Positions 11,048 to 46,619 of a DNA stretch of 64,000 nt are shown one piece after another. Position 1 is the first letter of the stretch. Each line of letters begins with the position of its first letter. The stretch spans positions 607,793 through 671,792 of the forward strand of contig CAVYXI010000018.1 in NCBI GenBank assembly GCA_963772435.1, written 5' to 3'. This stretch comes from an uncultured Gammaproteobacteria bacterium (GTDB lineage Bacteria > Pseudomonadota > Gammaproteobacteria > Xanthomonadales > Rhodanobacteraceae). A model generated the notes under the pieces. It did not search any database, was not told where the DNA came from, and saw nothing but the letters and a program-made list of their open reading frames with translations. The position numbers and the translations under genes were made by a program.

Positions 11048-11364
11048 CGCCGGGCGAAATCCTCACTGCCGAAGGCGATATTCGCCTCAACGCCGGACGC
11101 GAAGCGGTCACGCTCGCAGTCGCGAACGGCGGCGACCGGCCGATCCAGGTCGGCAGCCACTACCATTTCTTCGAGACCAACCCCGCGCTGCAATTCGATC
11201 GGGCCCGTGCGCGCGGCATGCGCCTCGACATTCCCGCCGGCACCGCGATGCGTTTCGAGCCGGGGCAGACGCGCGAGGCGCGCCTCATCCCTTACGCGGG
11301 CTCGCGTGTCGTCTTCGGCTTCCGCGGCGAAGTGATGGGTGCGCTCGACGCGGAGGCGAAATAG
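11044..11364 (+). CDS. ureB: urease subunit beta
   Basis: [44 protein letters not shown]… is the canonical UreB sequence. The start overlaps the ureA stop by 4 bp. Confidence 0.95.
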
Positions 11365-11366
11365 CG

Positions 11367-13079
11367 ATGTCGATCACCCTGAGCCGCCGCGCCTATGCAG
11401 ACATGTACGGCCCGACCGTCGGCGACCGCATACGCCTTGCCGACAGCGAGTTGTTGATCGAGGTCGAGAAGGACTTCACGGTCTACGGCGAGGAAGTGAA
11501 ATTCGGCGGCGGCAAGGTCATCCGCGACGGCATGGGCCAGTCGCAGGTCAGCCGTGCGGAAGGCGCGATGGACACCGTGATCACGAATGCGGTGATTCTC
11601 GATTACACGGGCATCGTCAAAGCCGACATCGGCCTGCGCGACGGACGCATCGCGAAGATCGGCAAGGCCGGCAATCCCGACGTGCAACCGGGCGTCGACA
11701 TCGTGATTGGCCCGGGCACCGAAATCATCGCGGGCGAAGGCAAGATCGTCACCGCGGGCGGCATCGACGCGCACATCCACTTCATCTGTCCGCAGCAGAT
11801 CGAGGAAGCGCTGTATTCGGGCATCACGACGATGCTCGGCGGCGGTACCGGCCCTGCGCACGGCACGCTCGCGACGACGTGCACGCCCGGCGCGTGGCAT
11901 CTCGCGCGCATGCTGCAGGCGGCCGAAGCGTTTCCGATGAACCTCGGCTTCTTCGGCAAGGGCAACGCGAGCAAGCCGGAGGCGCTCGAGGAGATGGTGC
12001 TGGCAGGCGCATGCGGCCTCAAGCTGCACGAGGACTGGGGCACGACTCCAGCCGCAATCGACTGCTGCCTGTCCGTGTGCGACGCGCTCGACGTGCAGGC
12101 GACGCTGCATACGGACACGCTCAACGAATCGGGTTTCGTCGAATCGACGATCGCCGCGTTCAAGGGCCGCACGATCCATGCCTTCCACACCGAAGGCGCG
12201 GGCGGCGGCCATGCGCCCGACATCATCAAGGTCGCCGGCCTGCCGAACGTGCTGCCGTCGAGCACGAATCCGACCCGGCCGTACACGGTCAACACGCTCG
12301 ACGAGCATCTCGACATGCTCATGGTCTGCCATCACCTCGATCCGCGCATCGCCGAGGACGTCGCGTTCGCCGAGAGCCGCATCCGCAAGGAGACGATCGC
12401 CGCCGAGGACATCCTGCACGACCTCGGCGCGTTCTCGATGATGAGTTCGGATTCGCAGGCGATGGGCCGCGTCGGCGAAACGATCATCCGCTGCTGGCAG
12501 ACGGCCGACAAGATGAAGCGTCAGCGCGGTGCGCTGTCGCCGGACAGCGCGAAGAGCGACAACTTTCGCGCGCGTCGCTACATCGCCAAGTACACGATCA
12601 ATCCCGCGATCGCGCACGGCATCGCCGAGCACGTCGGCTCGATCGAACCCGGCAAGCTCGCCGACCTCGTGCTCTGGTCGCCCGCGTTCTTCGCGGTCAA
12701 GCCCGATCTCGTGCTGAAGGCCGGCTCGATCGCGGCGGCGCCGATGGGCGATCCGAACGCGAGCATCCCGACGCCGCAACCGGTGCACTACCGGCCGATG
12801 TTCGGCGCGTTCGGTCGCGCCGGCATCGAATCGTCGCTGCTGTTCGTGAGCGGCGCGTTCGCCGCGAGTGGCCAGGCGCAGAAGCTCGGCCTCACGCGTC
12901 CGCTCGCCGCAGTGAAGAACACGCGCGACGGCATCGGCAAGCGCAGCATGCGGCTCAACGACGCGACGCCGCAGATCGATGTCGATCCGGAAACCTACGA
13001 GGTGCGTGCGGACGGCGAATTGCTCACCTGCGAGCCCGCGACCGTCCTGCCGATGGCGCAGCGCTATTTCCTTTTCTGA
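11367..13079 (+). CDS. ureC: urease subunit alpha
   Basis: The product is 570 aa, intact, with the conserved UreC active-site regions (…[22 protein letters not shown]…). Confidence 0.97.
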
Positions 13080-16408: not shown

Positions 16409-18499
16409 TCATGGAGAACACGCGGCGATGCCGAGCGGCGTCGTCAGGCGCTGCAGCGCAAACGTGCCGAGCGGCCCGAAGCCCGCCTGGCCGTTGTTGA
16501 TGAAGGGCCCCGTCACGGCGGAGCCGGTCGAACAGGACAGCTGGACGCTCGATCCGATGCCGCTCGACTTGTCTATCTGTGCCGGGTTGAACGCGGCGCC
16601 GAAATGCGTGCCGTGCGGCTGGACAAGTTCGCCGCTGTAGGCACTCGAAGTGAGCGCGTCCAGACCCTGGAACCAGCTTTGCGTCCCGTCTTCGGAGAGG
16701 ACGAAATAGAGCACCGAAAGCGTGCTGGCATCGAGCTGGTCGATCAGGAATCCGTCGCCGCTCACGGTCGGGTCGTACCAGCCGCCGCTCGGTTGCGCGG
16801 CAGTCGTCGTGCCTGACGCGCAATTCAGTCCGGCGAGTGACGTCAGCCGCTTGATCGGCACTTCCATCGAGCCCCAGCCCGCCGGGCCATCCCAGCGCAT
16901 GCCGCCGCTGCCGCAGTCGTCGAAAGTGAGCGCGATGCGGCCCCACGGCGTCTGCGTGACCTTGCCGGTCGCGTCGCGCAACGGCCGCAACACGTTCGCG
17001 AATTCGATGCCGTTGCCGACGATGTCGCCGATCGCATAGACCCACGCCTGCGTGCCGGCGACGCTTGCGGGCGGATAAGTGAAGAAGTATACGGCGGCCT
17101 TGTTGTTCGGCAGGATCTCGAGTTCGATGCCTTCGCCGCTGCGCGCAGGGTCGTACCAGGTACCGCTGTAGCGCGCGTCGACCGGCGGCGCAGTGCTCGC
17201 GGGACGTGGCGTGACCTGACTGTCGAAGCTCGGCGGCGTGATCGTCGCGTCGAAACGGCACGGCCCAGCAGCGCCCGCGCCCATGGCGGTCTGGCAGCTC
17301 GACTGCAGCGTCGCGACGGTCGGTTGTGCCGAGCCGGCGATCCAGGCACGCAGCGCTTCCCAGCCGCCGACGCCCTCGGCGAGATTGAAGCCGCAATGCG
17401 ACGGCGAGTCCTCGTTGACGAACGCGCTCGTCAATTGCGTCGCCGGCACGGTCTGGCGCAGCGTCGACTGGTTGGCCGGGATCACGAGCTCGTCCCTGCT
17501 CGTGTGCACCGAGACGATCTTCGTGCTCGCGGGGATGCGGCCGCGAAAATCCGACGCCCAGCGAAAATAGAGCTGTGCGAACGGGTTGGCATCGATGCGC
17601 GCGATGCCCGCGTCGATCGCGCTGTCGCCGTAGACGACGCCGGTCGTCGTGAACGGGTTGAGGCCGTTCAACTTGTCCGGCGCCCGCACGAGGTCGGACA
17701 GGCCGTAGGTCGAGTAGCCCATATCGACGAGGAAGAAGTGATCAGTCGTGACGTGGCTGAAATTCTTCAGCTGCGCGAGGCGCCGCTGCATGCCGCCGTT
17801 CTGCAGCGAGGTCGGCAGGCTGACGCCGGTGCAGGCGTTGACGGGAAGCAGCGTCTCTATCAGCAGCGCCTCGTTCTCGAGGTCGGAGAGATTGTCGGGA
17901 ACGTCTGCGAGGTCGTACGCCCAGGTGAGCGGCGGCTTGCCGGTCGGCAGCGCGGCATCGCTGACACCCTTGCAGACGACGTCATAGCCCAGACGGGCGT
18001 CGATGCCGGAATCCCATACGCGAGAACCCGCCGCAGGTGGACAGGCCGAGTAGACGCCCGCGACGGGTGCAAACCGGGGATCTTCGGCGAGCTTGAGCGC
18101 GACGAGGCCGCCGAGCGAGCCACCGTAAGGGATGATCGAACCTGGCGTGCCCACGCGCTGCCTGAACGCGTCGAGCAGCTGTGCATTGTCGTCCGCCGCG
18201 TTGAACAACGCCCAGGCGCGCTGGCTGAAGCTCGACGCGGCGACGGCGTAGCCTTCGCTCAGTTGCAAATCGGCGATCGGCCCGAGATCAGGATTTGGCT
18301 TGGGCGGATCGAACGACAGCCCGTGCTGGTAGAGGACGACTGCGCCGCCCGGCTGCCAGCCGTCCGGCACCTTGATCTGGTAATAGGCGCCCGAAGCGGT
18401 CTGGCCGGTGAGCGTCTGGGTCGCCCCGGCATCAGCGGCCAACAGCAGACTGGCGCATGCGAACGCGACGCATAGCGCTGCGAGGAGGCGTGTTTCCAT
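16409..18499 (-). CDS. secreted alpha/beta-hydrolase-like protein (GxSxG) with two C-terminal 'WYDP-SGEG' repeat domains
   Basis: The product is 696 aa and intact, with a signal peptide. YGGSLGG matches the GxSxG nucleophile motif. The C-terminal half contains two tandem ~130-aa modules that begin SGTWYDPARSGEGIELEILP and SGGWYDPTVSGDGFLIDQLD. Confidence 0.7.
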   Translation of the reverse strand: METRLLAALCVAFACASLLLAADAGATQTLTGQTASGAYYQIKVPDGWQPGGAVVLYQHGLSFDPPKPNPDLGPIADLQLSEGYAVAASSFSQRAWALFNAADDNAQLLDAFRQRVGTPGSIIPYGGSLGGLVALKLAEDPRFAPVAGVYSACPPAAGSRVWDSGIDARLGYDVVCKGVSDAALPTGKPPLTWAYDLADVPDNLSDLENEALLIETLLPVNACTGVSLPTSLQNGGMQRRLAQLKNFSHVTTDHFFLVDMGYSTYGLSDLVRAPDKLNGLNPFTTTGVVYGDSAIDAGIARIDANPFAQLYFRWASDFRGRIPASTKIVSVHTSRDELVIPANQSTLRQTVPATQLTSAFVNEDSPSHCGFNLAEGVGGWEALRAWIAGSAQPTVATLQSSCQTAMGAGAAGPCRFDATITPPSFDSQVTPRPASTAPPVDARYSGTWYDPARSGEGIELEILPNNKAAVYFFTYPPASVAGTQAWVYAIGDIVGNGIEFANVLRPLRDATGKVTQTPWGRIALTFDDCGSGGMRWDGPAGWGSMEVPIKRLTSLAGLNCASGTTTAAQPSGGWYDPTVSGDGFLIDQLDASTLSVLYFVLSEDGTQSWFQGLDALTSSAYSGELVQPHGTHFGAAFNPAQIDKSSGIGSSVQLSCSTGSAVTGPFINNGQAGFGPLGTFALQRLTTPLGIAACSP

Positions 18500-18677
18500 G
18501 CGATATCTGCTCCGTTAGCCGATCTTCCATTGCGCGATCTTCAGGTCGATGCCCCAGTTCGCGGACTCCATGTCTCGAATTGGGGACTCGCAACAAAAAT
18601 AGGCCTTTGCGCCTTAAGAGGGGCTAAATGTTCAACGCTCCCCTGTTCAGCGAGCGAACTGTCGATAGAATGGACGC

Positions 18678-29163: not shown

Positions 29164-30381
29164 TCAGACGCTGTCGCGGATTATCGCCTTGAACGGAAAC
29201 ACCTGCTGCCTGATGAATCCGTCAGGCATGTAGTCGCCGACGACACCGTAACGTTCGGGAAACTGCTTCTCGGACTTTACCGCAGTGCCGAAAAGATAGT
29301 CGAGGAACGCATAGTGCGCCGCGTAGTTGCGGTCGATCGCCTCGGTGTCCTGCGAGTGATGCCAGTGATGGAAGTCCGGCGTCACGATCAGATAGCGCAG
29401 CGGCCCCCAGGGCAGATGCACGTTCGCGTGATTGAACACCGCCTGGAAGCCGACGATGATGATGTAGGCGTTGATCACGCCCTCGCTGAAGCCGATCACG
29501 AACAGCGGCGCGAGCACGCAGACGCGCGTGAACACGATCTCGAGAATGTGCTGGCGCGAGCCGGCGAGCCAGTCCATCGTCTTCGCGCTGTGATGCACCG
29601 AATGGAATTTCCACAGCACCGGCACCTCGTGGTACGCGCGGTGCGTCCAGTACTGCGCGAAATCCGCGACGAGGATGCAAAGCAGAAGCTGCGGCACGAA
29701 CCAGATGCCCTGCACGGCCTGCTGGAAGGCGTGATCGACGAGCCCGCCGAACACGTGGTGGATCACGAAGTTCACGGTCAGCAGCATCAGGCCGACGAGG
29801 AAATGGTTGACCGCGAAATGCTTGAGGTCGGTCTGCCATTCCGGCCGGAATACAGACTGGCCCTTGTACAGCGGAAAGAGTTTCTCGATCACGACGAACA
29901 GGACGGTCGAACCGAGCAGGTCGAGGATGAACCAGTCGAGGCCGATGTACGGTGTGTGCTCCGGGAAGTCGCCGACCGGCACGCGCGAGCCGCCGAACAA
30001 CACCGCGGCCATCACGAACGCAAACGCGACGAGATTGGGATTGCGCCGACGTCCGAAGATGAGGTTGGTCAGCGACAGCCCGCCGGCGACGAGCAGTCCG
30101 ACGAGCAGCATCTGGCGCAATACGTCGACCGAATATTTGTGCCGCAGCTCGGGCGTCGTCAGGTATTCGGGAAAGTGAAACGCCAGTACCGCGAGCAGGC
30201 AGAGGATGCCGAGTACGAGTGCGATTACGGTCGTGATCAGCGAGCGGCCGCCTTCGCGCAGGTCGCCGCTGCGGTGTATCAGGCCGGAGGTGTCTTCAAC
30301 GACCGCACCCACGCGGCGTGCGGACGCCACGAACGGTGCAACGAGCACGCGACGAGACAAGCGCTGTTGCGTTTTCGACAT
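29164..30381 (-). CDS. sterol desaturase / fatty-acid hydroxylase superfamily membrane protein
   Basis: His boxes HRAYHEV, HSVHHS and HHWHH are present. The protein has multiple TM segments. The ORF is intact. Confidence 0.8.
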   Translation of the reverse strand: MSKTQQRLSRRVLVAPFVASARRVGAVVEDTSGLIHRSGDLREGGRSLITTVIALVLGILCLLAVLAFHFPEYLTTPELRHKYSVDVLRQMLLVGLLVAGGLSLTNLIFGRRRNPNLVAFAFVMAAVLFGGSRVPVGDFPEHTPYIGLDWFILDLLGSTVLFVVIEKLFPLYKGQSVFRPEWQTDLKHFAVNHFLVGLMLLTVNFVIHHVFGGLVDHAFQQAVQGIWFVPQLLLCILVADFAQYWTHRAYHEVPVLWKFHSVHHSAKTMDWLAGSRQHILEIVFTRVCVLAPLFVIGFSEGVINAYIIIVGFQAVFNHANVHLPWGPLRYLIVTPDFHHWHHSQDTEAIDRNYAAHYAFLDYLFGTAVKSEKQFPERYGVVGDYMPDGFIRQQVFPFKAIIRDSV

Positions 30382-30828: not shown

Positions 30829-32800
30829 ATGTCGTGGCTTAATTTCGAATTGAGCTTTGGCACGTTGTCGATCTCGATCGGCGTTCTCGTCCTGCTCATG
30901 CTGCTCTATTCGAGCATCGTCTACGTGCCGAACAATCGTGTCGGCATTCTCGAGCGCCTGTGGGCCTCGAAAGGTTCCGTCACGCAAGGCATCATGGCGC
31001 TGCACGGCGAGGCCGGTTATGTGCCCGACCTCTTGCGCGGCGGCTTCCATCTGCTGTTCCCGTTCCAGTACCGCGTGCACAAGGCCGACCTCGTGACCGT
31101 GCCGCAAGGTGAAATCGGCTATCTCTTCGCGCGCGACGGCAAGCCGCTCGAACCGGGACAGTCGCTCGCGGGCAATTCGCAGGCGGATCGACTTCGAAAA
31201 CGTGCGCGACTTCCTCGCCGCGGGCGGCCAGAAAGGCCCCCAGCGCAAGTTGCTGCGCGAAGGCGTCTACGCAATCAACACGGCGCAATTCGTCGTGCTG
31301 ACGCGCGCGACGACCTACGCGCTCGAACTTGCCGTCGCCGACGGCAACACGATCGACGCGATGCGCTCGCAGATCCAGGCGCGCGACGGTTTCCACCCGA
31401 TCGTGATCAACGACGCGAAGGATTCGATCGCCATCGTCACGGTGCATGACGGCCCCGGCCTGCCGGCCGGCGAATTGATTGCGCCGGCCGTCGGCGCGGA
31501 CCGCCGCATCGTGGCGACGTACCACAACAGCTTCCAGGACGCCGATCGCTTTCTCGTTGCCGGCGGTTTCCGCGGGCGCCAGTACCAGGTGCTCGTCGAC
31601 GGCACCTATTACGTCAACCGCCTGTTTGCGAGCGTCGAGTTCGTCGAGAAGACGCTCGTGCCGATAGGCATGGTCGGCGTCGTCGTCTCGTTCACGGGCA
31701 ATCGCGGCGCAGACCGCTCGGGCGTCGAATACCAGCACGGCGAACTCGTCGGCGAAGGCGAGCGCGGCGTCTGGGAAGCGCCGCTGCTGCCCGGCAAATA
31801 TGCGTTCAACCGCTTCGCGGGATCGATCGTGAAAGTGCCGACGACGAACTTCATCCTCAAGTGGGAGTCGGGCCAGTCGGGCTCGGACTTCGACCGCAAT
31901 CTCAAGGAGATCTCGCTGATCACGAAGGACGCGTTCGAGCCGACGTTGCCGCTCTCGGTCGTCGTGCACATCGACTACAAGAAGGCCGCGATGGTCATCC
32001 AGCGCTTCGGCGACGTGCAGAAACTCGTCGAGCAGACGCTCGACCCGATGGTGTCCGCGTACTTCAAGAACATCGCGCAGACGAAGACGCTGATCGAGCT
32101 GCTGCAACAGCGCGCCGACATCCAGAGCCTGGCGCTCGCCGACATGAAGGACAAGTTCGCCGCGTACAACCTCGAGCTGCAGGAAGTGCTGATCGGCACG
32201 CCGAAATCGCCGGTGGGCAACGGCCAGATCGAGCAGATCCTCGCGCAGCTGCGCGATCGCCAGGTCGCGCGGGAGCAGATCGAGACGTACGAGCGGCAGG
32301 AAGCCGCCGCGGTCAAGGAACGCACGCTGCGCGAAGCGGCGGCGGTCGCCGCGCAGCAGAAGGGCCTGACCGAGTCGCGCATCGCGATCGAGATCGCCGA
32401 AAACAAGGGTCTTGCGGAAGTGAAGACGCAGACGCGCCAGGGCGAGGCCGACGCGGCGAGAATTCGCAACGTCGCGCTGGCCGACGCCGAGCGCATCCGC
32501 GCGATCGGTGCGGCGAACGCCAATCGCATCGAGCTCGAAGGCACGGCAACGGCGCTGGCGGCGCAGAAGCAGGTCGAAGCCTATGGCGGCCCGGAGATCC
32601 GTCTCGCCCAGGAGATTTCCGCGCAGATCACGCACGCGATCGCCGAGGGCAAGCTGCCCGTGGTGCCGCAGGTCGTCGTCGGCGGCGATGGCCGCAACAC
32701 GAACGCGATCGACGCGATCACGGGCATGATTCTCGCGGCCGGCGAGCAGTTCCGCCAGAGCCAGTCGAAGCGTGCCGCAGCGACGAATGGCGCAGGCTGA
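30829..32800 (+). CDS. flotillin/SPFH-domain (YqiK-like) membrane protein; frameshift near 31190
   Basis: The N-terminal TM segment is followed by an SPFH domain and a long coiled-coil/flotillin C-terminus (…EAAAVKERTLREAAAVAAQQKGL…). Confidence 0.8.
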
Positions 32801-32889
32801 ATGACCCGCGAACGCGGTTTGTTTGACCCAGCGAAGAGTCCCGCGGATTTCCGCGGGCTCTTTCTTCATTCACATGCGCCAGGCGCCAT

Positions 32890-33969
32890 CTATCGCGACC
32901 GGGTGTATACGTCGGTCCAGTTCATCTCCCAGGTCTTGCCGCCATCAAGCGAAAATGCCTGTTCTGATTGCGCGGTGTCGGCTGTTGTACCCCAGATCGA
33001 AAAGCGTACCAGCGTGGCCTTGCCGTTGATCGGCTCCTGATCGTAGAACGTGAGGCGGCCGTCCCGGACCTCGCCAACGCCGGGTGTGTCGCCGAGCGTG
33101 CCGCTGTCCGGTTGAGCGAAATTGATGCTCCACTGTTTCGTCGTCGGGTTGTACACGCGCAGGGCCAGGCGCTCCATCGCGACGGAGGAACCGTTTGCCT
33201 TGAACTCGGCGAGGTTCGCCTTGCCACCCCAGACCGGCGTGACGTTCGTGATCCCATCCATCTCGACCCAGTCGTTCGCGCCGGAGAGCGGATGCATCAG
33301 CCGTTTCGAGTGGGTTTTCCACTCGCCGAGTCGAAATCGAATTCATGACTGCCTTCGTGGTCGGGCCTGAGCACGAGCGCGACGCCGGCACTGCGTCGGC
33401 CAACTTGGTCTTGTTCGCGGTGAGCTGGACTTCCCAGGTCTTGCCGCCATCGGTCGAATAGGACTCTTCGTAGCGGTGCGTGGTCGACGTGATCTCCGAC
33501 CAGCGGCCGCGAACCAGAATCGCGCGGCCCTCGAATGTGTCCGATGCGTACAGTTCGCCATGTCCTTCCTTGAAACCGCCGATCAGTCCACCGGCGAACG
33601 CACCGCACTTGCTGCCGATGAATGTCTGGCTCCACTGGTGCGCGCGCGGGTTGTAGAGGAACATCGACATGCCCTCCCAGTGGCCGTTTGGACCGTCTGC
33701 GTCGATTTCCTCGAGTGTGCGCGGCCGTTCCAGACCTTGCGCACCTTGACCGTGCCGTTCAATTCGATCGTTTCGTCCGAGCCGGACAGCGCATGCACGC
33801 GGCGCTTGAGCTGCGTCTTCCACAGGCCGAAATTGAAATCGAAGTCATGGCTGCCATCGCGCTCGGCCAGCGCTGCTGCGGGTGCGGACGGAGTATCGGA
33901 GTGAGCCGGCCATGCGCAGCAAGCGCAGCAGCCGGCAACGATCAGGGTAAGCAGGGGTTTGGTGAATTT
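32890..33969 (-). CDS. secreted protein with two tandem ~140-aa paralogous domains, each ending in an Asp-box (SxDGGKTW); frameshifted
   Basis: A GTG start is followed by the signal peptide KFTKPLLTLIVAGCCAC. Domain 1 is …MFLYNPRAHQWSQTF…SYSTDGGKTWEV. Domain 2 is …LRVYNPTTKQWSINF…FSLDGGKTWEM. Confidence 0.5.
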
Positions 33970-33991
33970 CACATGTAGTCTCCCATCGCCC

Positions 33992-34780
33992 TCAGGGCCG
34001 TCTGAATTTGTAGATGAATTGATCGGTGTGTCCGACGACAGACGGGTCGAATACACCCGCAGTGTGCGGATCGGAGGGATTGGCGAGAACGCGACTTTCG
34101 CCTTCGAAGCTGAATCCCGCGGCTTCGACTTCACGCCGCACGACCGCAGGCTCGATGCGATGCAAGGTCTCGGTAACATCGGCCGCGGCACCTCGAGCCG
34201 CTACGTGATCAATAACGATATAGACACCGCCGGGCTTAAGCGCCGCGAACACCGCCCGATTGAACGCCGCTGTGTCGACCGGGCCCATGAATTTGTCTTT
34301 GAGGTCGTGATAGTTCTGCGAAATCCAGAACACGTCGAGCTTTTCCGGATACCGCGCCACCTCGAGCGCGGCGCCGAAATTCAAAGCCGCGTTCGGGTGC
34401 GCGAAGAGGTAGCTCTCGACCTCGGCGGTGCCCTTGACGATGTTCGGGTACTTGTACAGCGTGTTCGGCACGCTCCCGTAGACATGGCCCTGCGCGCCGA
34501 CGATCATCGAAAAGAGGCGCGTGAAATAACCCTGGCCCACCGCGTAATCGGCGATTTTGTCGCCCGGCTTGACGCCGGCGAAGGCGAGCACCTCGGCGGG
34601 TCTGCGGCTCGCGTCGCGCGCGGTGTCGGTTGCAGGCCGCGCCGGATCAGCGATCGCCGCCGCAATCGCCGTATTCGCCGGCGCATCGCCGGTGTCGCGC
34701 GCGCACGCAATACCGCCGGGCACGCACGTGAGTGCACAAACGAGCACTCCGCAAGACAAGTTGAAGGATCTAGGCGCCAT
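33992..34780 (-). CDS. secreted class I SAM-dependent methyltransferase
   Basis: The signal peptide is MAPRSFNLSCGVLVCALTCVPGGIACA. The SAM-binding motif VADYAVGQGYFT is present. Confidence 0.75.
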   Translation of the reverse strand: MAPRSFNLSCGVLVCALTCVPGGIACARDTGDAPANTAIAAAIADPARPATDTARDASRRPAEVLAFAGVKPGDKIADYAVGQGYFTRLFSMIVGAQGHVYGSVPNTLYKYPNIVKGTAEVESYLFAHPNAALNFGAALEVARYPEKLDVFWISQNYHDLKDKFMGPVDTAAFNRAVFAALKPGGVYIVIDHVAARGAAADVTETLHRIEPAVVRREVEAAGFSFEGESRVLANPSDPHTAGVFDPSVVGHTDQFIYKFRRP

Positions 34781-34934
34781 GGTGCTTTTCCTTGTTGAGA
34801 TGATGCTCGGTCGCCACCGCGACCAGCCTGCGTGTCCGGCGAAATGGTCGCCTGCGCAGGGCAGACTCAACAGGCCCACATCGCGAAAATTTATCTGGGC
34901 CACATGCGCGCCGTTCACTATCATTCATCGAAGG

Positions 34935-36431
34935 ATGGACCCCCTATTCGAAATCGGACTCGAACTGCCCGCGAAGGGTTCGCGAAACGCGGCGCGTTCG
35001 TTGTTTGAGCAGCTCAAGTCCGCGATTGTCGACGGGCGACTCGTCGCGGATGCAAAGCTGCCGCCGACGCGCAAGTCCGCTGAATTTCTTGGCGTATCAC
35101 GCAACACCGCGAGCGAGATTTACGATCGCCTGCTGCACGATGGCTACGTCGTCACACGCCATGGTGCAGGCACCTATGTCGCGTCGACGTTGCCGACGCA
35201 GACGTCAATGCTTGAGCGGGCGCGTGATGCAGGGCCGCCCGACACCCGCCTCAATCCGTTCTGGTTGCGCGACGATGTCACGCAGGCAATGGGCTTCTGG
35301 CGCGATCGCGCCGTGTTGGAGCCCACGCGCACAAGGGGCAGCGCAATCGACTTTCGCCCCGCGCTGGTCGACTCGCGCCTGTTTCCGTTCGACGTGTTCC
35401 GCCGTGTCAGCGCGAAGCAGTTGCGTGGGCTGGAACGCAAGCCGGCGCGCTTCAAGAGTCCGCAGGGCAATCAGGGCAACTTCCATCTTCGCGAAGCGAT
35501 CAGCCGCCATATCGCCTTGACGCGGGCCGTCGTCAGTCAGCCGGACGACGTCGTTGTCACCGCCGGCGCGCAGCAGGCGTTCGACCTGCTCGCTCGAATT
35601 CTCGTCAAGCCGAATGAAACTGTCGTTGCTGTCGAGGATCCAGGCTACCCGCCGATGCGCGTACCGTTCGCTGCGGCTGGCGCCAGGATCGTGCCGGTCG
35701 GCGTCGACGACGAAGGGCTGATCGTCGACCAGCTTCCAGCCGATGTTGGCGTGATCTGCGTCTGCCCTTCGCATCAGTTTCCGCTCGGTGTGACGATGTC
35801 GGCACGGCGGCGCAAAACGCTGCTTGCGTTCGCGCACGAACGCGGCGCAGTCGTCGTCGAGGACGACTACGACGGCGAATTCCGCTACGGCGCGACTTCG
35901 CTGGACGCGCTGCGAACGTCTGCCGCAGTCGATGTCGTCTTCTACGTTGGCACCTTTTCGAAGTGCATGCTGCCAGCCTTGCGGCTCGGCTTCATCGTTG
36001 CGCCGCAATGGGCGATGCGCACGCTGGTCGCCGCGAAGAACGGCCTCGACTGGCACTGCCCGGTACCTGTGCAACTCGGCGTTGCGGCCTTTGTGGCGGA
36101 AGGACATCTCGCGCACCATGTTCGCTCGATGCGTTCGATCTACCAGCGCCGACGGCAGTTGCTGCTGAACTTGTTGCGCGAGGAATTCGCGGACTCACTA
36201 GCCCCGATCGACTCGTTCTACGGCATGCATTTGTCCGCGTTCGCGAGAACCCGGACTGATCTCGAATCGTTGGCAGAGGCATTGCTGGAGCAGGGCGTGA
36301 AGGTTCACACGCTCGATCGGTACTACGTCGGCACACAGCGCCGAAGCGGCCTCATTTTCGGCTACGGCGCCGTCGATCTGACGGAGATCAGACGCGGGAT
36401 GAACTCGCTTTTTCGCATCCTGACCTCATGA
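34935..36431 (+). CDS. MocR-like (GntR HTH + PLP aminotransferase-fold) transcriptional regulator
   Basis: An N-terminal GntR-type HTH (LPPTRKSAEFLGVSRNTASEIYDRL) is fused to a class-I aminotransferase-like domain with a Lys in the SKCMLP context. The product is 498 aa and intact. Confidence 0.85.
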   Translation: MDPLFEIGLELPAKGSRNAARSLFEQLKSAIVDGRLVADAKLPPTRKSAEFLGVSRNTASEIYDRLLHDGYVVTRHGAGTYVASTLPTQTSMLERARDAGPPDTRLNPFWLRDDVTQAMGFWRDRAVLEPTRTRGSAIDFRPALVDSRLFPFDVFRRVSAKQLRGLERKPARFKSPQGNQGNFHLREAISRHIALTRAVVSQPDDVVVTAGAQQAFDLLARILVKPNETVVAVEDPGYPPMRVPFAAAGARIVPVGVDDEGLIVDQLPADVGVICVCPSHQFPLGVTMSARRRKTLLAFAHERGAVVVEDDYDGEFRYGATSLDALRTSAAVDVVFYVGTFSKCMLPALRLGFIVAPQWAMRTLVAAKNGLDWHCPVPVQLGVAAFVAEGHLAHHVRSMRSIYQRRRQLLLNLLREEFADSLAPIDSFYGMHLSAFARTRTDLESLAEALLEQGVKVHTLDRYYVGTQRRSGLIFGYGAVDLTEIRRGMNSLFRILTS

Positions 36432-36489
36432 ATGCGGCACCGCCGGCCTGCGCTTGCTAGACTTCGGCCAGTTCCTACTGGAATGCTCG

Positions 36490-38142
36490 ATGAGCATGCA
36501 ACACAGCGACGTCTTGATCATGGGTGGCGGCCTCGCGGGCCTCACGCTGGCGATCCAGCTGCGTCGGGAGCTGCCGGCGTTGTCGGTGCGCATCCTCGAA
36601 CGCAATCGCCATCCCGTTCCCGAAGCTGCGTTCAAGGTCGGCGAGTCGAGCGTGGAGATCGGCGCCCACTACTTCGAAACCGTCCTCGGCCTCCGCGCGC
36701 ATCTCGAGGCTGACCAGTTGCGCAAGTTCGGTTTCCGCTTCTTCTTCAACGAAGGCCTCGACGCTCTCGACCAATGCGTCGAACTCGGCACCAGCGAAGT
36801 GTTTCCGACGCCGAGCTACCAGCTCGATCGCGGCATCTTCGAGAACTTCCTCGCCGCGCACGCGGCCGCGCTTGGCGCCGAGTTCGTCGACGGCGCCGTC
36901 GTTCGCCGCATCGATCTCGCTGATGCCGATCAACAGCGGACCGATCAACCGCGAGCCGATCAACAACTGGCCGGTCAGCAACCGAGCGTTCGCGACCACG
37001 TCGTCCACTACGAACACGCCGGCGCCGCGCACACCGCCACCGCGCGCTGGCTGATCGACGCGAGCGGTGGCGCGGGCCTGCTCAAGCGCAAGCTCGGCCT
37101 CGAGGAAAGCAACGGCCACGACGCCAACTCGATCTGGTTCCGCATCGCCGACCGCGTCGCGATCGACGACTGGCACGGCGGCGAATGGGCGCAGCGCTGC
37201 CGACCGCCCGAGCGCTGGCGTTCGACGAATCACCTGTGCGGTCCCGGCTACTGGGCGTGGCTGATTCCGCTGTCGTCGGGCTCGCATTCGGTCGGCATCG
37301 TTGCGGACGCGCAGATGCACCCGCTCGCCACGATCAACACCTTCGACAAGGCGATGGCCTGGTTCGCCGAGCACCAGCCGCAGCTGCATCGCGAGCTCGA
37401 GCCGCGCCGTCATCTGCTGCAGGACTTCGCGTACCAGCGTCACTTCTCGCACGGCTGCAAGCAGGTGTTCTCGGCCCAGCGCTGGGCGATCACCGGCATC
37501 GCGGGCGTGTTCCTCGATCCGTTCTACTCGCCGGGCAGCGACTACATCGCGATCGCCAACACCTACATCGTCGACCTGATCGGCCGCGACGCACGCGGCG
37601 AGCCCTTCGCGCGTCAGGCGCGCGCGTACGAGCGACTCTACTTTTCGTTCTATCAGAACACGCTGCCGCTGTACGAAGGCCAGTACCCGATGTTCGGCCA
37701 CGCCCAGTGGATGCCGATCAAGGTCGTCTGGGACTACGCGTACTACTGGGGCGTGCTCTGCCAGTTCTTCTTCCAGAAGCGGTTGACCGACGTCGCGCTG
37801 TTCGGCAGGCTCGCCGAGCCGCTCGCAGCGTGTGCCGCGCTGAACCGCGACGTGCAGCTGCTGTTGCGCCGGGCCGCCGGCACCGGCGTCGGCGCGGCAT
37901 CGACGGAATTCGTCGATCAGTGCGCGCTGCCGTGGTTCGCCGAGATGAATCGAGGGCTGCGCGACGTCCTCGACGATGCGGCGTTGCAGCGGCGCATCGA
38001 GGACAACGCCGCGATGCTGCACGAACTCGCCGCGCAGATCGGCCAGCGCGTCCGCGCCGAACATCCCGCGGCGCTGCACGGGCTGACTTCGCTCGTCGGT
38101 CTCGAAGCGACGCTCACGCCCGACCTGCTGCACGCGGCTTAG
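36490..38142 (+). CDS. flavin-dependent halogenase family protein (tryptophan-halogenase-like)
   Basis: The FAD motif GGGLAGL is present. Both halogenase signature motifs are present: WxWxIP (GYWAWLIPL) and FxxPxxSxG (FLDPFYSPG). The ORF is intact and encodes about 550 aa. Confidence 0.75.
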   Translation: MSMQHSDVLIMGGGLAGLTLAIQLRRELPALSVRILERNRHPVPEAAFKVGESSVEIGAHYFETVLGLRAHLEADQLRKFGFRFFFNEGLDALDQCVELGTSEVFPTPSYQLDRGIFENFLAAHAAALGAEFVDGAVVRRIDLADADQQRTDQPRADQQLAGQQPSVRDHVVHYEHAGAAHTATARWLIDASGGAGLLKRKLGLEESNGHDANSIWFRIADRVAIDDWHGGEWAQRCRPPERWRSTNHLCGPGYWAWLIPLSSGSHSVGIVADAQMHPLATINTFDKAMAWFAEHQPQLHRELEPRRHLLQDFAYQRHFSHGCKQVFSAQRWAITGIAGVFLDPFYSPGSDYIAIANTYIVDLIGRDARGEPFARQARAYERLYFSFYQNTLPLYEGQYPMFGHAQWMPIKVVWDYAYYWGVLCQFFFQKRLTDVALFGRLAEPLAACAALNRDVQLLLRRAAGTGVGAASTEFVDQCALPWFAEMNRGLRDVLDDAALQRRIEDNAAMLHELAAQIGQRVRAEHPAALHGLTSLVGLEATLTPDLLHAA

Positions 38143-38248
38143 CGCGCGCAGGCGGGGCCGCTCTGTACTTTGGTCGCGTATTGCGCCGCGACCGGATTCG
38201 CTACGCTTCCGCTGCAACAGCCGAGCGCCGAACACCGCGGAGACCACT

Positions 38249-39440
38249 ATGGCAACGCCCATCACGACAATCATGGACCTGCGCGAAATCGCGCGGCGCC
38301 GCGTCCCGCGCGCGTTCTTCGAGTACGCCGACCGCGGCTCGTACGAGGAAGTGACGCTGCGCGACAACCGCGCCGCGTTCGACGACATCCGCCTGCGCCA
38401 GCGCGTGATGATCGACGTCGACAAGCGTTCGCTCGCGACGACCGTCGTCGGCCAGCCGCTGTCGATGCCGCTCGCGATCGCGCCTACCGGTCTCACGGGC
38501 CTGCAGCACGGCAGCGGCGAGATCCTCGCTGCGCGCGCCGCAGCGGCAGCGGGAATTCCGTTTTGCCTCAGCACGATGTCGATCTGTTCGATCGAGCAGG
38601 TGCGCGCGGCGTCGCCGACGCCGTTCTGGTTCCAGGTATACGTCATGCGCGATCGCGGCTTCGTGCGCGAGCTCATCCAGCGCGCGGCGGCCGCGCAGTG
38701 TTCCGCATTGATGCTGACCGCCGACCTCACGGTGCAGGGCCAGCGCCATCGCGAGATCAAGAACGGCCTGTCGGTGCCGCCGAAGATCACGCTGCGCAAT
38801 GTCCTCGACATCGCGACCAAGCCGCGCTGGGCATGGGGCGTGTTGCGCGCGCCGAGTCGCTCGTTCGGCAATCTTGCGGGACGCATCGACAACGCCGACA
38901 CGCTGACGACGCTCGCGCAGTGGATCGCGAAACAGTTCGATCCGACGCTGACCTGGCGCGATCTCGACGTGGATTCGCGAGCTCTGGCCCGGCAAGCTCA
39001 TCGTCAAGGGCATCCTCGACGCGGAAGACGCGCGCATCGCCGCGAATGAAGGGGTCGACGCGATCGTCGTCTCCAATCACGGCGGACGCCAGCTCGACGG
39101 CGCACCCGCAGCGATTCACGCGCTGCCGTACGTCGTCGATGCGGTCGCGGGCAAGACCGAAGTGCTGTTCGACAGCGGCATCACGACCGGGCAGAGTCTG
39201 CTCAAGGCGCTCGCGCTGGGCGCGCGCGCGGGCCTGATCGGCAAGGCGTTCCTCTACGGCCTCGGCGCACTCGGCGAAGCCGGCGTCACCAAGGCGATCG
39301 AGATCATCCGCAAGGAACTCGATGTCAGCATGGCGCTGACCGCGCAATGCGACGCGCGTTCGATTTCGCGCGACATCCTGCTCGAGCGCGACGGCAGCCC
39401 CTATCGGCGAGCGCGGCGCCCGCCCGGCGATTCGACGCCG
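38249..39440 (+). CDS. FMN-dependent alpha-hydroxy acid dehydrogenase (LldD / glycolate-oxidase family); frameshift near 38985
   Basis: The FMN-dependent dehydrogenase family pattern is present (…[25 protein letters not shown]…VVSNHGGRQLDGAPA…). Confidence 0.8.
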
Positions 39441-39462
39441 GCCTGAGCCGACAGCCGTCCTC

Positions 39463-40435
39463 TCAACCCGCGGCTGTCTGCGCCGTGCAGTTCGCGTATT
39501 CGACCGAGGTCAACCGCGACCATTGCAGCGTAGTGGAGCGCTTCGGCAGCGTCGGATCGGTGTTCGTCGCGGTCAGCACCATCGACACCGAACTGCAGGA
39601 CGGCCAGCTGAACTGGATCGTGCCCCAGACGGTCTTGACCACCTTGCTCGAATCGGTCGTGCCACCGAAACCGCCGCCTTTCGTCGCATACATCGTGACC
39701 GTCGACGAGTAAGTCTGGTGTGTGAAACAGGCCTGGCACAGCGCGGCAGCGCCCGTGAGCCACAGTGGATTGCCGCTGTCGTCGAACGTGTACATCGTCA
39801 CCGTCAGCAATTGGCCTGGTATGACCTCTATCTGCACGCCCTCGCCGGAATGCGCGGGATCGTAGTACAGACCGGCGACATAGCCCGCAAGCGGCACGCC
39901 CTTCAAAAGGTTCTGGATACAGGGCGGGATCGAAGTCCGGCAGGTTGACGATCTGCCGGGTACCGCCGGCAATCGGCGACGTGCCGGTCATCTGCACGGT
40001 CAACGCCTTCGTGTAGTCGATGCCGTACGCGTCGAGAACGACGATGGCGCCCGCACCGACATCGCTGGTAACCGTGTCGATCGCTGATAGATTCGTGTAC
40101 GGCTCGGCGTTGAAGACGGCATTGATCACCGTCGTGCCCTGCACGATCCTGATCGGCGGAAACAGGCCGCTCGTCCCTCCGGAGAAACCTATCAGCACTG
40201 CAGCGCCGCCACCAGGGCATGCCTGCCGATAGACGGCGTAGGTGTAGGTGCTCGTGTTGCCGCTCTTGTCGAGACTCAGCAGATCGATGGAACCCGAAAA
40301 CAGGACGGGCTCGTTCGCGGCGGGCGGAGGCATCGGCTGCGCGCGATCGGGGAAGCAGGTGCCCGGATACGGTGCTGCCCAGGCCAGCGTCGACGACAGA
40401 AGCCAGACTGTCAGCATTGCAGCGAGAAATCTCAT
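39463..40435 (-). CDS. secreted protein with C-terminal 'YDP-SGEG' domain (paralogous to the 16409-18499 repeats); frameshift near 39900
   Basis: The signal peptide is MRFLAAMLTVWLLSSTLAWA. The C-terminus reads GLYYDPAHSGEGVQIEVIPGQLLTVTMYTFDDSGNPLWL…. Confidence 0.55.
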
Positions 40436-40517
40436 CGGTCTCACGCTCCCGTAATGCGGCACAGACCGGAGCCTAACCGAGGAACTCCCGCACTGACAAT
40501 GCCGCGTCGCCTTCGAT

Positions 40518-42073
<1,556 letters not shown>

Positions 42074-42112
42074 TCATTTGCGTGATCCGCGTCCAGCTCT
42101 TGATCTCAATGC

Positions 42113-45100
42113 TCACGCAGCACGACGCAGCTCCTCGGTCAGCGCGTCGAGGCTCGCGGCCTTCGGCTTGACCAGCCAGAACTTGTGCACGAGGTCGCGG
42201 AAATCATCGAGCAGACGCTTGCCCCAGCGCTGCCGGTCGCGCGCTGGTGCGCGATCAGCAGGTCGCGCAGGTGCTGCCAGTAGTTCTCCATGCCTTCGTG
42301 CGAGATGCGCGTGGATGTCGACGAGTTCGTGGTTGTAGCGGTCGACGAAATCGCGCTCCTCGTCGAGCACGTAGGCGAAGCCGCCGGTCATGCCGGCGCC
42401 GAAATTGACGCCGCTGCGGCCGAGCACGACGACGCATGCCGCCGGTCATGTATTCGCAGCAGTGATCGCCGACGCCTTCGACGACGGCGAGCGCGCCGGA
42501 GTTGCGCACGCCGAAGCGTTCGCCGGCGCGACCCGCCGCGTACAATTCGCCGCCGGTCGCGCCGTACAGGCAGGTGTTGCCGACGATCGACCGCTTCGTG
42601 TCGCGGCGCACGCCGCACCCTGCGGCGGACGCACGACGATGCGTCCGCCCGCCATGCCCTTGCCGACGCCGTCGTTCGCTTCGCCGTCGAGCACGATGTG
42701 CACGCCGCCGGCATTCCACGCGCCGAGACTCTGCCCCGCCGCGCCGTGACAGCTTGCAGCGTGATCGGCTTCGCCGCCATGCCCTGGTCGCCGTGGCGGC
42801 GCGCGACGTCGCCCGAGAGGCGCGCGCCGATCGCGCGGTCGGTGTTCCTGATCGCGTAGTGGAATTCTCCGCCGCTGCCGCTCTCGACCGCCGCCTTCGT
42901 GTCGTCCGCGATGCGCAGCGCGAGCTCGCTGCCGGGAATCGGCGCGCGCGGCACGCACGCGGGCGCCGGCGTCGCTGGACAGCCCGCGTGCCGAGCAGCG
43001 GCGCGAGATCGAGCTTGCCGCTGCTTCACCGTCACGCCGTCGCGACTGCCGCAGCCAGTCGGTGCGGCCGACGATTTCCTCGAGACGACGCACGCCGAGC
43101 TGCGCGAGCAACGCACGCACGTCTTCAGCGACGAAGCGGAAGAAATTCTCGACCTTCTCGGGCGGGCCGACGAAATGCTTGCTTGCGCAGCATCGTCGTT
43201 CTGCGTCGCGACACCGGTCGCGCACGAATTCAGGTGGCAGATGCGCAGATACTTGCAGCCGAGCGCGACCATCGGCGCCGTGCCGAAGCCGAACGATTCG
43301 GCGCCGAGCATCGCCGCCTTGATCACGTCGAGTCCGGTCTTCAGGCCGCCGTCGGTCTGCACGATCACGCGTTCGCGCAGGCCGTTGCGCGCGAGCGTCT
43401 GCTGCGTTTCGGCGAGGCCGAGTTCCCACGGCACGCCGGCGTAGCGGATCGACGTGATCGGGCTCGCGCCGGTGCCGCCGTCGTGGCCGGAGATCGTGAT
43501 GAGGTCTGCATTGGCCTTCGCCACGCCCGCCGCGATCGTGCCGACGCCGGCATGCGCGACGAGCTTGACCGAGACGAGCGCCTGCGGATTGACCTCCTTC
43601 AGGTCGTAGATCAGCTGCGCGAGATCTTCGATCGAATAGATGTCGTGATGCGGCGGCGGCGAAATCAGACCGATACCCGGGCGCGCATAGCGCAGGCGTG
43701 CGATCAGCGCGTTGACCTTGTGCCCGGGCAACTGGCCGCCCTCGCCGGGCTTCGCGCCCTGCGCGATCTTGATCTGCAGCACCTCGGCGTTGACGAGATA
43801 TTCGGGCGTGACGCCGAAACGGCCCGACGCGACCTGCTTGATCTTCGACATCTTCTCGGTGCCGTAGCGCGCCGGGTCTTCGCCGCCCTCGCCGGAGTTG
43901 CTGCGCGCGCCGAGCCGGTTCATCGCCGTCGCCAGCGCTTCGTGCGCTTCGGGCGACAGCGCACCGAGCGACATGCCGGCCGAATCGAAGCGCTTGAGGA
44001 TCGCTTCAGCGGGTTCGACCTCGTCGATCGGGATCGGTGCATGCGGACTCTGCACGTCGAGCAGATCGCGCAGTGCCGCCGGCGCGCGGCCGTTCACCGC
44101 GTCTGCGTAGCTTTCGGTACAATTTCGCACGTCGCGCGTACGTACCGCCATCTGCAGCGAGCCGACGACGGCGGGGTTGTACATGTGGTACTCGCCCTCG
44201 GGCAACGCGCGCAGCAGCCCGCCCGGCGGCAGCGCGTAGTTCGGATCGCGCGCGGCGACGAGACTGCGCGCTTGTACTCGGCCTGGATGTCGGCGAAGCC
44301 GGCGCCGCCGATGCGCGACGGCGTGCCCGGGAAAGCAGAGATCGACCACTTCGCGGTCGAGACCGACGATCTCGAACAGCTGCGCGCCGCGATAGCCGGC
44401 GATCGTCGAGATGCCCATCTTCGAGATGATCTTGAGCAGACCCTTGCTGGATGCCGCGACGGTAGCTGCGGCCGATCTCGCTCGGCGGCTCGCCCTGGCG
44501 ACCCTTGAGCTCGCCGCGGCGGTTCATGTCGAACAGCGTCTGGTACGACAGATACGGATAGACCGCCGTCGCGCCGAAACCGATCAGGCAGGCGAAATGG
44601 TGCGCGTCGCGTGCGTTGCCGGTTTCGACGAGCAGGTTGCAGTCGCAGCGCAGCTGCTTCTGCGTGAGGCGCGCGTGCACGGCGCCGGTCGCGAGCAGCG
44701 CATGGATCGGCAACAGGCCGGGAACCGGGTAGCGGTCGGACAACAGGATGAGCATCGCGCCGCCGCGAACGGCTTCCTCTGCGGCGTCGCAGAGCCGCTC
44801 GATGCGCAGCCTTGAGCCCGACCTTTTCGTCGTAGTAGAGATCGAGCTTGATGTTCGCGTTCGTGATGTTCGGCAGCGCGAGGATCTGGCGCAGCTTGCG
44901 CTGCGACAGAATCGGCGAGTTGAGGAGCACCTGGCTCGCGTTCTCCGGCCACGAGCTCGAACACGTTGCGCTCGAGGCCGATCTGCGTCGACAGCGACAT
45001 CACGAGACGCTCGCGCAGCGGGTCGATCGGCGGATTCGTGACCTGCGCGAACGCCTGGCGGAAGTATTCGTAGAGCGGCCGGGACTGCCGGCGTCATCAC

Positions 45101-46619
45101 CGCGATCGGCGTGTCGTCGCCCATCGAACCGGTCGCCTCGGCCTCGTCCTCGGCGAGCGTCTTCAGCACGACGTCGCGCTCCTCGCGCGTGAGCGCGAAC
45201 TGCTTCTGGTAGCGCGCGAGCGTTTCGGGACTGAACGGCTCGGCCGCGAGTGCCGGGATCGATCAGGTGCGACTCGAGATACGTGAGCTTCTCGCGCAGC
45301 CAGCGCTTGAACGGCGCGCGTGAGCGGTTGATCGCGTCGATCGCGGCCGTGTCGAGCAGCTCGTGTTCGACCAGATCGACCGCGATCATCTCGCCGGGCC
45401 CGAGGCGGCCCTTGGCGACGATGCGCTCGGGCGGCATGTCCCACAATCCGGCTTCCGACGCGACGATGAGTGGTTGTCGTCCGACCGCGCCCAGCGCGCC
45501 GGGCGCAGGCCGTTGCGGTCGAGCGTGCACGCCGCGTGGCGGCGCATCGCAAAGGACGATGCCGGCCGGGCCATCCCACGGCTCGCTGTGCAGCGCGTAG
45601 TATTCGTAGAACGCTTCGAGATCCTCGTCGAGATCCTCGCGCGACGCCCACGCGGGTGGCATGAGGACGCGCATCGCGAGCAGCACGTCGAGACCGCCCG
45701 CAACGAGCACTTCGAGCATGTTGTCGAGGCTCTGCGAATCGGAGCCGGTCAGGCTGACGAGCGAGCCGAGGTCGGACAGTTCCACGAGCGGCGACTTGTA
45801 CTTGCCCGCGCGCGCGGTCGCCCAGTTGCGGTTGGCCTTGATCGTGTTGATCTCGCCGTTGTGCGCGAGCAGGCGAAACGGCTGCGCCAGACGCCAGTGC
45901 GGCATCGTGTTCGTCGAGAAGCGCTGGTGGAATACCGCCGCGCTGACGGCGAGCTCCGCATGGGCCAGATCGGGAAACGCCTCGCGCAGGCGTCCCGGCG
46001 CGACCATCGCCTTCGCAGCGAACGTGCTCGCCGACAGCGTGACGACGTAGAAATGCGCATCGTCGGCCAGCGCCTTCTCGGCGAGGCGGCGCGCGCGGAA
46101 CAGGATGCGATCGAAGCGGGCTTCATCAAAGCGGCTTCATCAGCGCCAGCATCGCCGGCAGGCGCGTTGACGAAGATCTGGGCGATGCGCGGCTGATGGG
46201 CGGCGCCGATCGGCCCGCAGGCGGTCGCGTCGACCGGCACGTCGCGCCAGCCGGCGACCGTGCAGCCGGCGTTCGACGAGTTCGCGCTCGAGCGCGGCCT
46301 GCTGCGCCTTCGCGCGCGCCGCGTCCTTCGGATCGAGAAAGACATGACCCGAGGCGAAATGTGCGCCGACGTCGATGCCGGCCTCGCGCGCGAGCGCGCG
46401 CAGCCAGCCGGTCGGCCGATAGAGCAGGATGCCGCAGCCGTCGCCGGTGATGCCGTCGGCGCCGATGCCGCCGCGATGCGACATCTTGGCGAGCGTCGAG
46501 AACGCCTGGTCGACGACCCAGGCACTGGCCTTGCCATCGATGTTGGCGATGAGACCAAAGCCGCAGCTGTCGTGTTCGAACGACGGATCGTAGAGGCTGT
46601 TCAGACTGCCTTGCGGCAT
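42113..46619 (-). CDS. gltB: glutamate synthase large subunit; many frameshifts
   Basis: The N-terminus is [30 protein letters not shown] (amidotransferase Cys1). FMN/TIM-barrel segments lie in ORFs 45000-46007, 44006-45169 and 42388-44418. The C-terminus …[23 protein letters not shown]… lies at 42113-42427. Confidence 0.85.

Follow-up and report, generated by a model that had tools for sequence, protein, structure and literature searches.

The window analyzed here is a stretch of 64,000 nucleotides on contig CAVYXI010000018.1 of an uncultured gammaproteobacterium (family Rhodanobacteraceae). The element in question is a gene at 36490-38142, whose product is a homologue of flavin-dependent halogenases. 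An initial annotation had assigned the gene to this family and had proposed that it forms, together with its neighbors, a block for the modification of a small metabolite. The gene and the diagnostic elements of its product are the following:

36490..38142, plus strand: flavin-dependent halogenase homologue, intact open reading frame (ORF), 550 amino acids, Rudaea-type, adjacent to gltBD
36523..36540, plus strand: GxGxxG motif binding flavin adenine dinucleotide (FAD), GGGLAG, residues 12-17, invariant in 74 homologues
36724..36726, plus strand: codon of Lys79, located in LRKFGFRFFF, equivalent of the catalytic lysine, invariant in 74 sequences
37252..37269, plus strand: WxWxIP motif, WAWLIP, residues 255-260, with W255, W257, I259 and P260 invariant
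37510..37536, plus strand: FxxPxxSxG motif, FLDPFYSPG, residues 341-349, invariant save Leu342 (at least 90% of sequences)

The three motifs GxGxxG, WxWxIP and FxxPxxSxG, on which the initial annotation was based, were all found where it had placed them; in addition, residues 50-53 read VGES. Conservation was deduced from an alignment of 74 homologues, which are 56-97% identical. The WxWxIP motif is generally held to keep the substrate away from the flavin. The Pfam model Trp_halogenase scored 39.7 bits (cutoff 21, E-value 3.7e-10), which signals homology and not a chance motif match; together with the invariant Lys79 and the predicted fold (see below), this confirms the family assignment. A HMMER alignment placed Lys79 on the lysine of the PltA segment KKFGAAW and of the CmlS segment KKPSATF. 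We take these KFG and KPS segments to be the catalytic lysine segments of the two enzymes. For the halogenase gene, the ratio of nonsynonymous to synonymous substitution rates (dN/dS) is 0.14-0.17, which means that it is under purifying selection.

For a sequence search of the PDB, a profile was built from 17 family members. It matched the solved halogenases PltA (E-value 1.4e-21), CmlS, Bmp2, FasV, ChlB4, CndH, Mpy16, RadH, CtcP, MalA, and PltM; the other matches were the uncharacterized flavoprotein 3nix and, both weak with E-values above 1e-4, GrhO5 monooxygenases and one putative tryptophan halogenase. An AlphaFold2 model, computed from the 74-sequence alignment, reached a mean predicted local distance difference test (pLDDT) score of 90.9 and a predicted template modeling (pTM) score of 0.92. 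When this model was compared with the PDB by means of Foldseek, the top 45 hits were CtcP, FasV, PltM, PltA, RadH, CmlS, Mpy16, ChlB4, Bmp2, CndH, MalA, and again 3nix, with E-values of 1e-17 to 1e-21. Each feature of sequence and fold that was tested was found, and the protein thus truly belongs to the superfamily of flavin-dependent halogenases; its structural class is the non-tryptophan, PltA/CmlS/Bmp2-like one. Judged by its sequence and by the model, it would also act as a halogenase.

Of the two catalytic residues named by the initial annotation, the lysine is present, whereas the position of Glu346 of tryptophan halogenases, i.e. the residue before the serine of FxxPxxSxG, is occupied by a tyrosine (Tyr346). 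The protein is consequently not a tryptophan halogenase. A phenylalanine is found at this position in PltA (FVDPIFSSG), Bmp2 (FLDPIFSYG), and CmlS (FTDPLFSQG); as Glu346 is also absent from these enzymes, Tyr346 excludes the identity of a tryptophan halogenase only. With the carrier-protein-dependent pyrrole/phenol halogenases PltA, Bmp2, Mpy16, and CndH, and with CmlS, the protein shares the fold, GxGxxG, WxWxIP, FxxPxxSxG, in which the serine is preceded by an aromatic residue, and the lysine of a K-x-G element. In contrast to them, it is only about 20% identical in sequence, has a C-terminal region of about 170 residues of its own, which AlphaFold2 modeled as all-helical, and its gene has no carrier-protein gene nearby in the window. 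With PrnA and RebH it has the superfamily and the overall chemistry in common, and the identical numbering of Lys79 is a coincidence; the tyrosine at position 346 and the lack of detectable similarity to the tryptophan-binding module set it apart, and neither enzyme was among the significant matches of sequence or structure. The nearest NCBIfam model is CmlS (52 bits, equivalog cutoff 900). Pfam detected an FAD-binding and a Trp_halogenase domain only, and no reductase or NAD(P)H-binding domain; a separate flavin reductase would therefore be needed. A single-component halogenase was ruled out for the same reason.

Two further properties of the protein were noted. A Gln/Asp-rich low-complexity loop (residues ~148-172, 36931-37005) exceeds that of most relatives by about 10-26 residues and was modeled at low confidence (pLDDT 55-73); 10 of its residues are missing from the 97% identical protein P0001, and the loop of P0109 is longer still. 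The protein 3nix, a flavoprotein of Cytophaga hutchinsonii, is among its best neighbors with respect to both structure and sequence. Cytophaga presumably produces aryl-polyene pigments of the flexirubin type, which may carry chlorine; in that case, 3nix could be a related halogenase acting on pigments.

The window protein has thousands of homologues. In order to determine their genomic context, 95 loci were compared, of which a scan of species-representative genomes yielded 80 and look-ups of individual contigs 15. Proteins that are 52-63% identical occur in Variovorax, Methylibium, Polaromonas, Steroidobacter, Lysobacterales, Tahibacter, and Ahniellaceae. Among the 72 loci outside the gltBD-adjacent clade described below, 61 contain the homologue collinear with and directly downstream of a ketosynthase (KS) and chain-length factor (CLF) pair, sometimes with a family 2 glycosyltransferase (GT2) gene in between. 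Many of these loci also contain genes for XanB2 (an FkbO/Hyg5-like chorismatase), an acyl carrier protein (ACP), an AMP-ligase, MMPL, and LolA-like, ApeI-like and ApeP-like proteins, and many have a second, distant halogenase-like gene of the XanB1 type. Such a locus is a xanthomonadin-type aryl-polyene cluster; the conserved partner of the family is the KS-CLF(-GT2) unit of these clusters.

The order KS-CLF-GT2-halogenase was found in Xanthomonas and in eight Lysobacterales-like loci. In X. translucens pv. poae, the genes are KS, CLF, GT2, halogenase (P0327), ketoreductase (KR), ApeP, MMPL, LolA, acyltransferases, ApeI, ACP, XanB1, and XanB2. P0327, which is annotated as "halogenase" and corresponds to "H" in the map of X. 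axonopodis pv. manihotis, resembles the window protein in length, motifs, and lysine, and is 56% identical to it over 542 residues. XanB1-type proteins (about 455-462 residues, encoded next to XanB2) are likewise Trp_halogenase-family flavoproteins of xanthomonadin clusters; as their identity to the window protein is only 25-28%, they constitute a separate paralogous family. Published maps of Xanthomonas clusters list both, "H = halogenase" and XanB1 as "putative reductase/halogenase" (PMC3838355). In the clusters of Xanthomonas and Variovorax, the KS/CLF pair (ORF16-17) is flanked by halogenase genes, and Lysobacter enzymogenes, which makes a pigment free of bromine, lacks them; xanthomonadins bear zero to two bromine atoms (PMC3691225).

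In Xanthomonas, the GT2 and halogenase genes overlap by 4 nucleotides (L095, 9183-10004 and 10001-11626). P0252, a protein of 818 residues, contains a Glycos_transf_2 and a halogenase domain; it is either a natural fusion or an artefact of gene calling at such a 4-nucleotide overlap.

By sequence, the window protein belongs to the halogenase family of xanthomonadin clusters, but its gene does not occupy the usual position after KS-CLF(-GT2). Unlike the gene of the Xanthomonas cluster, it adjoins no aryl-polyene gene; it is located next to gltBD and belongs to a Rudaea-type clade of its own. The proteins that are 62-97% identical to it stem from Rudaea, Pseudolysobacter, and gammaproteobacterial metagenome-assembled genomes (MAGs). 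In a neighbor-joining tree, the gltBD-adjacent proteins formed one clade, which is the sister of the KS-CLF-linked clade; no member of the former adjoins KS-CLF. Of the 16 related loci, 12 were found to have gltD and gltB near the halogenase; the remaining four either are shorter contigs or gave no gltD match in the flank. The neighbors of the halogenase gene in the window are the following:

32899..33972, minus strand: BNR/DUF1579-like gene with three frameshifts (four pieces in three frames in a tblastn comparison with the L001 gene, which is intact; Pfam assignment on the L001 orthologue)
33992..34783, minus strand: methyltransferase-like gene (sub-threshold matches; 80% identical to a 261-residue L001 gene)
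34935..36431, plus strand: MocR-type regulator (Pfam GntR 44.5 bits, Aminotran_1_2 81.4 bits)
38249..39446, plus strand: flavin mononucleotide (FMN)-dependent 2-hydroxyacid (LldD-like) dehydrogenase, FMN_dh (Pfam FMN_dh on both halves)
39466..40435, minus strand: conserved hypothetical protein, 323 residues, frameshift near 39900, no Pfam match
40526..41954, minus strand: gltD, small subunit of glutamate synthase, several frameshifts, the syntenic anchor of the clade
42388..46558, minus strand: gltB, region of the large subunit of glutamate synthase, split over frames (ORF pieces; synteny with L001 and L003)

The gene content between halogenase and gltD varies among the loci of the clade:

Window and L001/L002: MocR, halogenase, FMN_dh, hypothetical protein
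L094 (4.3-kb contig): MocR, halogenase, FMN_dh, then end of the contig
L003: Band_7, halogenase, FMN_dh
L009: MocR, halogenase, gltD directly after it
L004/L005: POR, halogenase, transglutaminase
L008: POR, halogenase, esterase

A search with the chain-length factor of Tahibacter led to CLFs labeled Rudaea sp. and made it possible to locate both parts of the system in one genome. On contig_36937 (594,533 bp) of a Rudaea MAG, the gltBD-adjacent halogenase P0092 is encoded at about 284 kb, and a KS-CLF-GT2 unit (CLF P0229) at about 514 kb, i.e. about 229 kb apart. No halogenase follows this GT2, and no other aryl-polyene genes were detected within 10 kb. A second Rudaea contig contains KS-CLF-GT2, likewise without a halogenase. 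Given the order KS-CLF-GT2-halogenase in Xanthomonas and the eight Lysobacterales-like loci, the state in Rudaea looks like the same arrangement, from which the halogenase has moved away. In loci L089 (8898-11552) and L092 (8799-11553) of Rudaea MAGs, the trio KS-CLF-GT2 is a tiny island amid genes for coproporphyrinogen oxidase, SecB, and GPDH; ACP, XanB2, and exporter genes are absent within 10 kb of it. The pigment pathway thus appears to be scattered in the Rudaea lineage, and programs that search for gene clusters would for this reason miss the halogenase in Rudaea-like genomes.

The explanation we consider best, and to which we give about an even chance, is that the gene encodes a two-component halogenase of the xanthomonadin-cluster family, which was separated from KS-CLF-GT2 in a Rudaea-like lineage, is now located next to gltBD, and acts in trans on a hydroxyphenyl-polyene intermediate. 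Applying the established chemistry of flavin-dependent halogenases to the window protein, a separately encoded flavin reductase would supply FADH2, which would react with O2 to the flavin C4a-hydroperoxide; attack of bromide or chloride would generate the hypohalous acid (HOBr or HOCl), which would be steered to Lys79 and would halogenate an electron-rich carbon of the hydroxyphenyl(-polyene) intermediate. This intermediate would probably be ACP-bound, as the closest structural relatives PltA, Bmp2, Mpy16, and CndH act in this manner. A partner flavin reductase was not identified. If this explanation holds, the gene would be a displaced part of the widespread xanthomonadin/aryl-polyene pigment system and not the center of a new MocR-controlled halogenation pathway. 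The gene belongs to a known and widespread family, within which the Rudaea-type subclade, with its changed location, represents a small departure.

A more specific version, which we regard as tentative, makes the family the brominase of xanthomonadin-type aryl-polyene pigments and the window gene a trans-encoded member of it. The enzyme would perhaps place the unusual bromine either on that carbon of the polyene which adjoins the ring or, in an ACP-bound intermediate, on the ring itself. The Rudaea-type clade would then indicate that the enzyme can work uncoupled from the polyketide synthase (PKS) genes, and a soluble member that stands alone would give access to the chemistry of pigment bromination, which has been assumed since the 1970s and for which we know of no demonstration in the literature. 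It is the family as a putative aryl-polyene pigment brominase, rather than the locus in the window, that is of main interest: for these thousands of proteins, tests of halide preference, of aryl versus vinyl halogenation, and of carrier-protein dependence were not found in the literature.

Several observations weigh against a pigment halogenase acting in trans. The whole window was searched by means of tblastn with 16 proteins of the L006 cluster; the halogenase itself was the sole match, and KS, CLF, ACP, XanB2, MMPL, LolA, ApeI, and ApeP are all missing from these 64 kb. The search was confined to the window; the rest of the genome may or may not contain KS-CLF genes and a second, cluster-linked copy of the halogenase. 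The neighbor-joining tree bears no support values, and a distant paralogue served as its root. Members of the gltBD clade are only 52-63% identical to cluster-linked ones, and the substrate may have changed after relocation. For a xanthomonadin halogenase, the literature search gave annotations in gene maps only, and no biochemical characterization was found of any family member, the enzyme of the Xanthomonas cluster included. That cluster contains two halogenase-like genes, one of this family and XanB1, neither of which is assigned to a position of bromination; xanthomonadin I has two bromines, and an assignment of these to either protein was not found in the literature. Finally, conserved motifs and a conserved lysine are no guarantee of halogenating activity.

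A change of the substrate is the core of another reading, according to which the protein is a stand-alone halogenase that, after leaving the cluster, acts on a different phenolic or pyrrolic substrate, either free or carrier-bound, that plays no part in pigment synthesis. The separate clade with its stable gltBD position across Rudaea, Pseudolysobacter, and related MAGs would agree with it, as would the faster evolution of the gene in comparison with its flanks (80-83% versus 94-95% amino-acid identity to L001) and the existence of other isolated copies within the cluster-linked clade (L023, L041, L053, L070). For three of these, L023, L041, and L053 from Rhizobacter/Burkholderiales, inspection of ORFs, made without a domain search, revealed no informative shared neighbor. 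However, an identity of 52-63% is about as low as that between cluster-linked members from different orders, and an alternative conserved partner gene was not found. In the Rudaea genomes that were examined, no halogenase gene follows KS-CLF-GT2, as is expected if the gene has kept its role in that pathway. Ordinary divergence between the clades, the dN/dS value of the halogenase, and the invariant catalytic residues favor a gene that has been relocated and has kept its role in the pathway, acting in trans, and we regard a changed substrate as unlikely, if worth serious consideration. Rather improbable in our view is a non-halogenating flavoprotein, i.e. a hydroxylase or other oxidoreductase that has retained the fold and the motifs. 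The CmlS model scores far below its cutoff, the names in public databases vary ("flavin-dependent dehydrogenase", "NAD(P)/FAD-dependent oxidoreductase", "tryptophan 7-halogenase", "halogenase"), and in the accessible literature halogenated aryl polyenes are reported from Xanthomonas only. On the other hand, WxWxIP, FxxPxxSxG, and Lys79 are invariant across the family, all close structural neighbors of known function are halogenases, and presence or absence of the gene tracks the brominated pigment of Xanthomonas and the non-brominated one of L. enzymogenes (PMC3691225). The name tryptophan 7-halogenase, given to homologues in several database records and apparently in line with the Pfam Trp_halogenase match, is hardly credible as a function. 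The candidate was rejected on Tyr346 and on the pattern of matches, which is headed by PltA, CmlS, Bmp2, CndH, and RadH, the sole tryptophan-halogenase entry reaching an E-value of 5.6e-4 over 70 residues; moreover, the genomic linkage is to type II PKS genes and not to tryptophan-derived pathways. For this family such names are misleading.

The initial annotation had interpreted MocR, halogenase, FMN-dependent dehydrogenase, and methyltransferase as one regulated unit modifying a small aromatic or amino-acid-derived metabolite. Parts of this description were correct: the MocR-type regulator, with its GntR and Aminotran_1_2 domains, lies directly upstream of and co-directional with the halogenase at a distance of 58 nucleotides, scans for promoters and terminators in 33800-40600 did not rise above background and showed no convincing terminator between the two genes, and the order MocR-halogenase-FMN_dh recurs in the nearest relatives L001/L002 and L094. 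The unit as a whole is nevertheless quite improbable. The arrangement is limited to relatives that are at least 81% identical. MocR was found only in the window, L001/L002, L009, and L094, and FMN_dh in the window, L001-L003, and L094. L003, which is 80% identical, has halogenase and FMN_dh and lacks MocR, the methyltransferase-like gene, and the BNR gene; L009 has these three and no FMN_dh; and the neighbors in L004, L008, and L010 are quite unlike those in the window. MocR and FMN_dh come and go independently of the halogenase, and the comparison of neighborhoods, which the initial annotation had set beforehand as decisive, revealed no conserved neighbors for the proposed block. In addition, the FMN_dh domain is indeed located downstream of the halogenase, but its frame is broken near 38966, and the gene at 33992-34783 is intact, but its assignment to the methyltransferases dependent on S-adenosylmethionine (SAM) is sub-threshold (Methyltransf_31 E-value 0.032; UbiE motif-I region 5.5e-4; SAM-methyltransferases of the PDB 0.0016). 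The neighbors of the halogenase are variable, functionally unrelated genes and not a new pathway.

The MocR-type protein is a fusion of a GntR winged helix-turn-helix with a type-I aminotransferase fold and contains the pyridoxal 5'-phosphate-binding lysine (Lys343) in the motif GTFSK; it scored 371.5 bits on the NCBIfam model PdxR (cutoff 320). It faces the divergent gene pair of methyltransferase-like and BNR genes and is present only alongside them, L003 having lost all three while keeping the halogenase. MocR thus probably belongs with these two genes and not with the halogenase. The only repeats found lie in the intergenic region between the methyltransferase-like gene and MocR, which is weak evidence to the same effect: none occur in the gap between MocR and halogenase. 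These are two short direct repeats in 34809-34905, GGTCGCCACCGC/GGTCGCCTGCGC 37 nucleotides apart and GGCCCACAT/GGGCCACAT 24 nucleotides apart, which, by sequence, could be an operator of MocR or due to chance.

The reading frames were checked by comparing the genes of the window with the syntenic metagenome contig L001 (proteins 78-95% identical), using tblastn and DNA alignment. Single-base frameshifts relative to L001 split many genes in 30829-46558 and are unusually dense: one was found in Band_7, three in the BNR-like gene, one each in FMN_dh and in the gene of the 323-residue hypothetical protein, which the initial annotation had called a secreted protein, and several in gltD; the ORF pieces of gltB overlap and are spread over several frames. 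In contrast, the halogenase, MocR, methyltransferase-like, and fatty-acid hydroxylase genes are intact. The frameshifts, which are unevenly spread, are due either to an error-prone assembly or to real pseudogenization. The break in FMN_dh is a 1-nucleotide insertion (an extra G) with respect to the 94-95% identical relative in L001. The dN/dS value is 0.074 on both sides of it, and the break is consequently an assembly error or very recent. The contig of the closest relative, L094, stops short of the site.

The G+C content is about 66% across the window and 0.63-0.67 in the region flagged by the initial annotation, which is therefore compositionally not distinct. The methyltransferase-like, MocR, and halogenase genes (33992-38142) encode proteins 78-83% identical to those of L001; for the flanking fatty-acid hydroxylase (29164-30381) and FMN_dh (38249-39446), the values are 94-95%. 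The synonymous substitution rates (dS) are 0.68-1.12 for the three genes and 0.40-0.44 for the two flanking ones. The middle segment has evolved faster or has a different history. A horizontally acquired island was ruled out by the normal G+C content and the syntenic position.

Elsewhere in the window, an ORF of 702 residues (16409-18514, minus strand) contains two regions that match the C-terminal half of the 323-residue hypothetical protein with 24-29% identity, which suggests, at the level of sequence similarity, a repeated domain family in this genome. A full-length match of the Rfam family 5_ureB_sRNA (140.5 bits) was found at 11519-11808 on the minus strand, antisense to a large ORF at 11007-13079 on the plus strand; if the latter is a gene for a urease subunit, the match probably reflects conserved coding sequence and not a small RNA.

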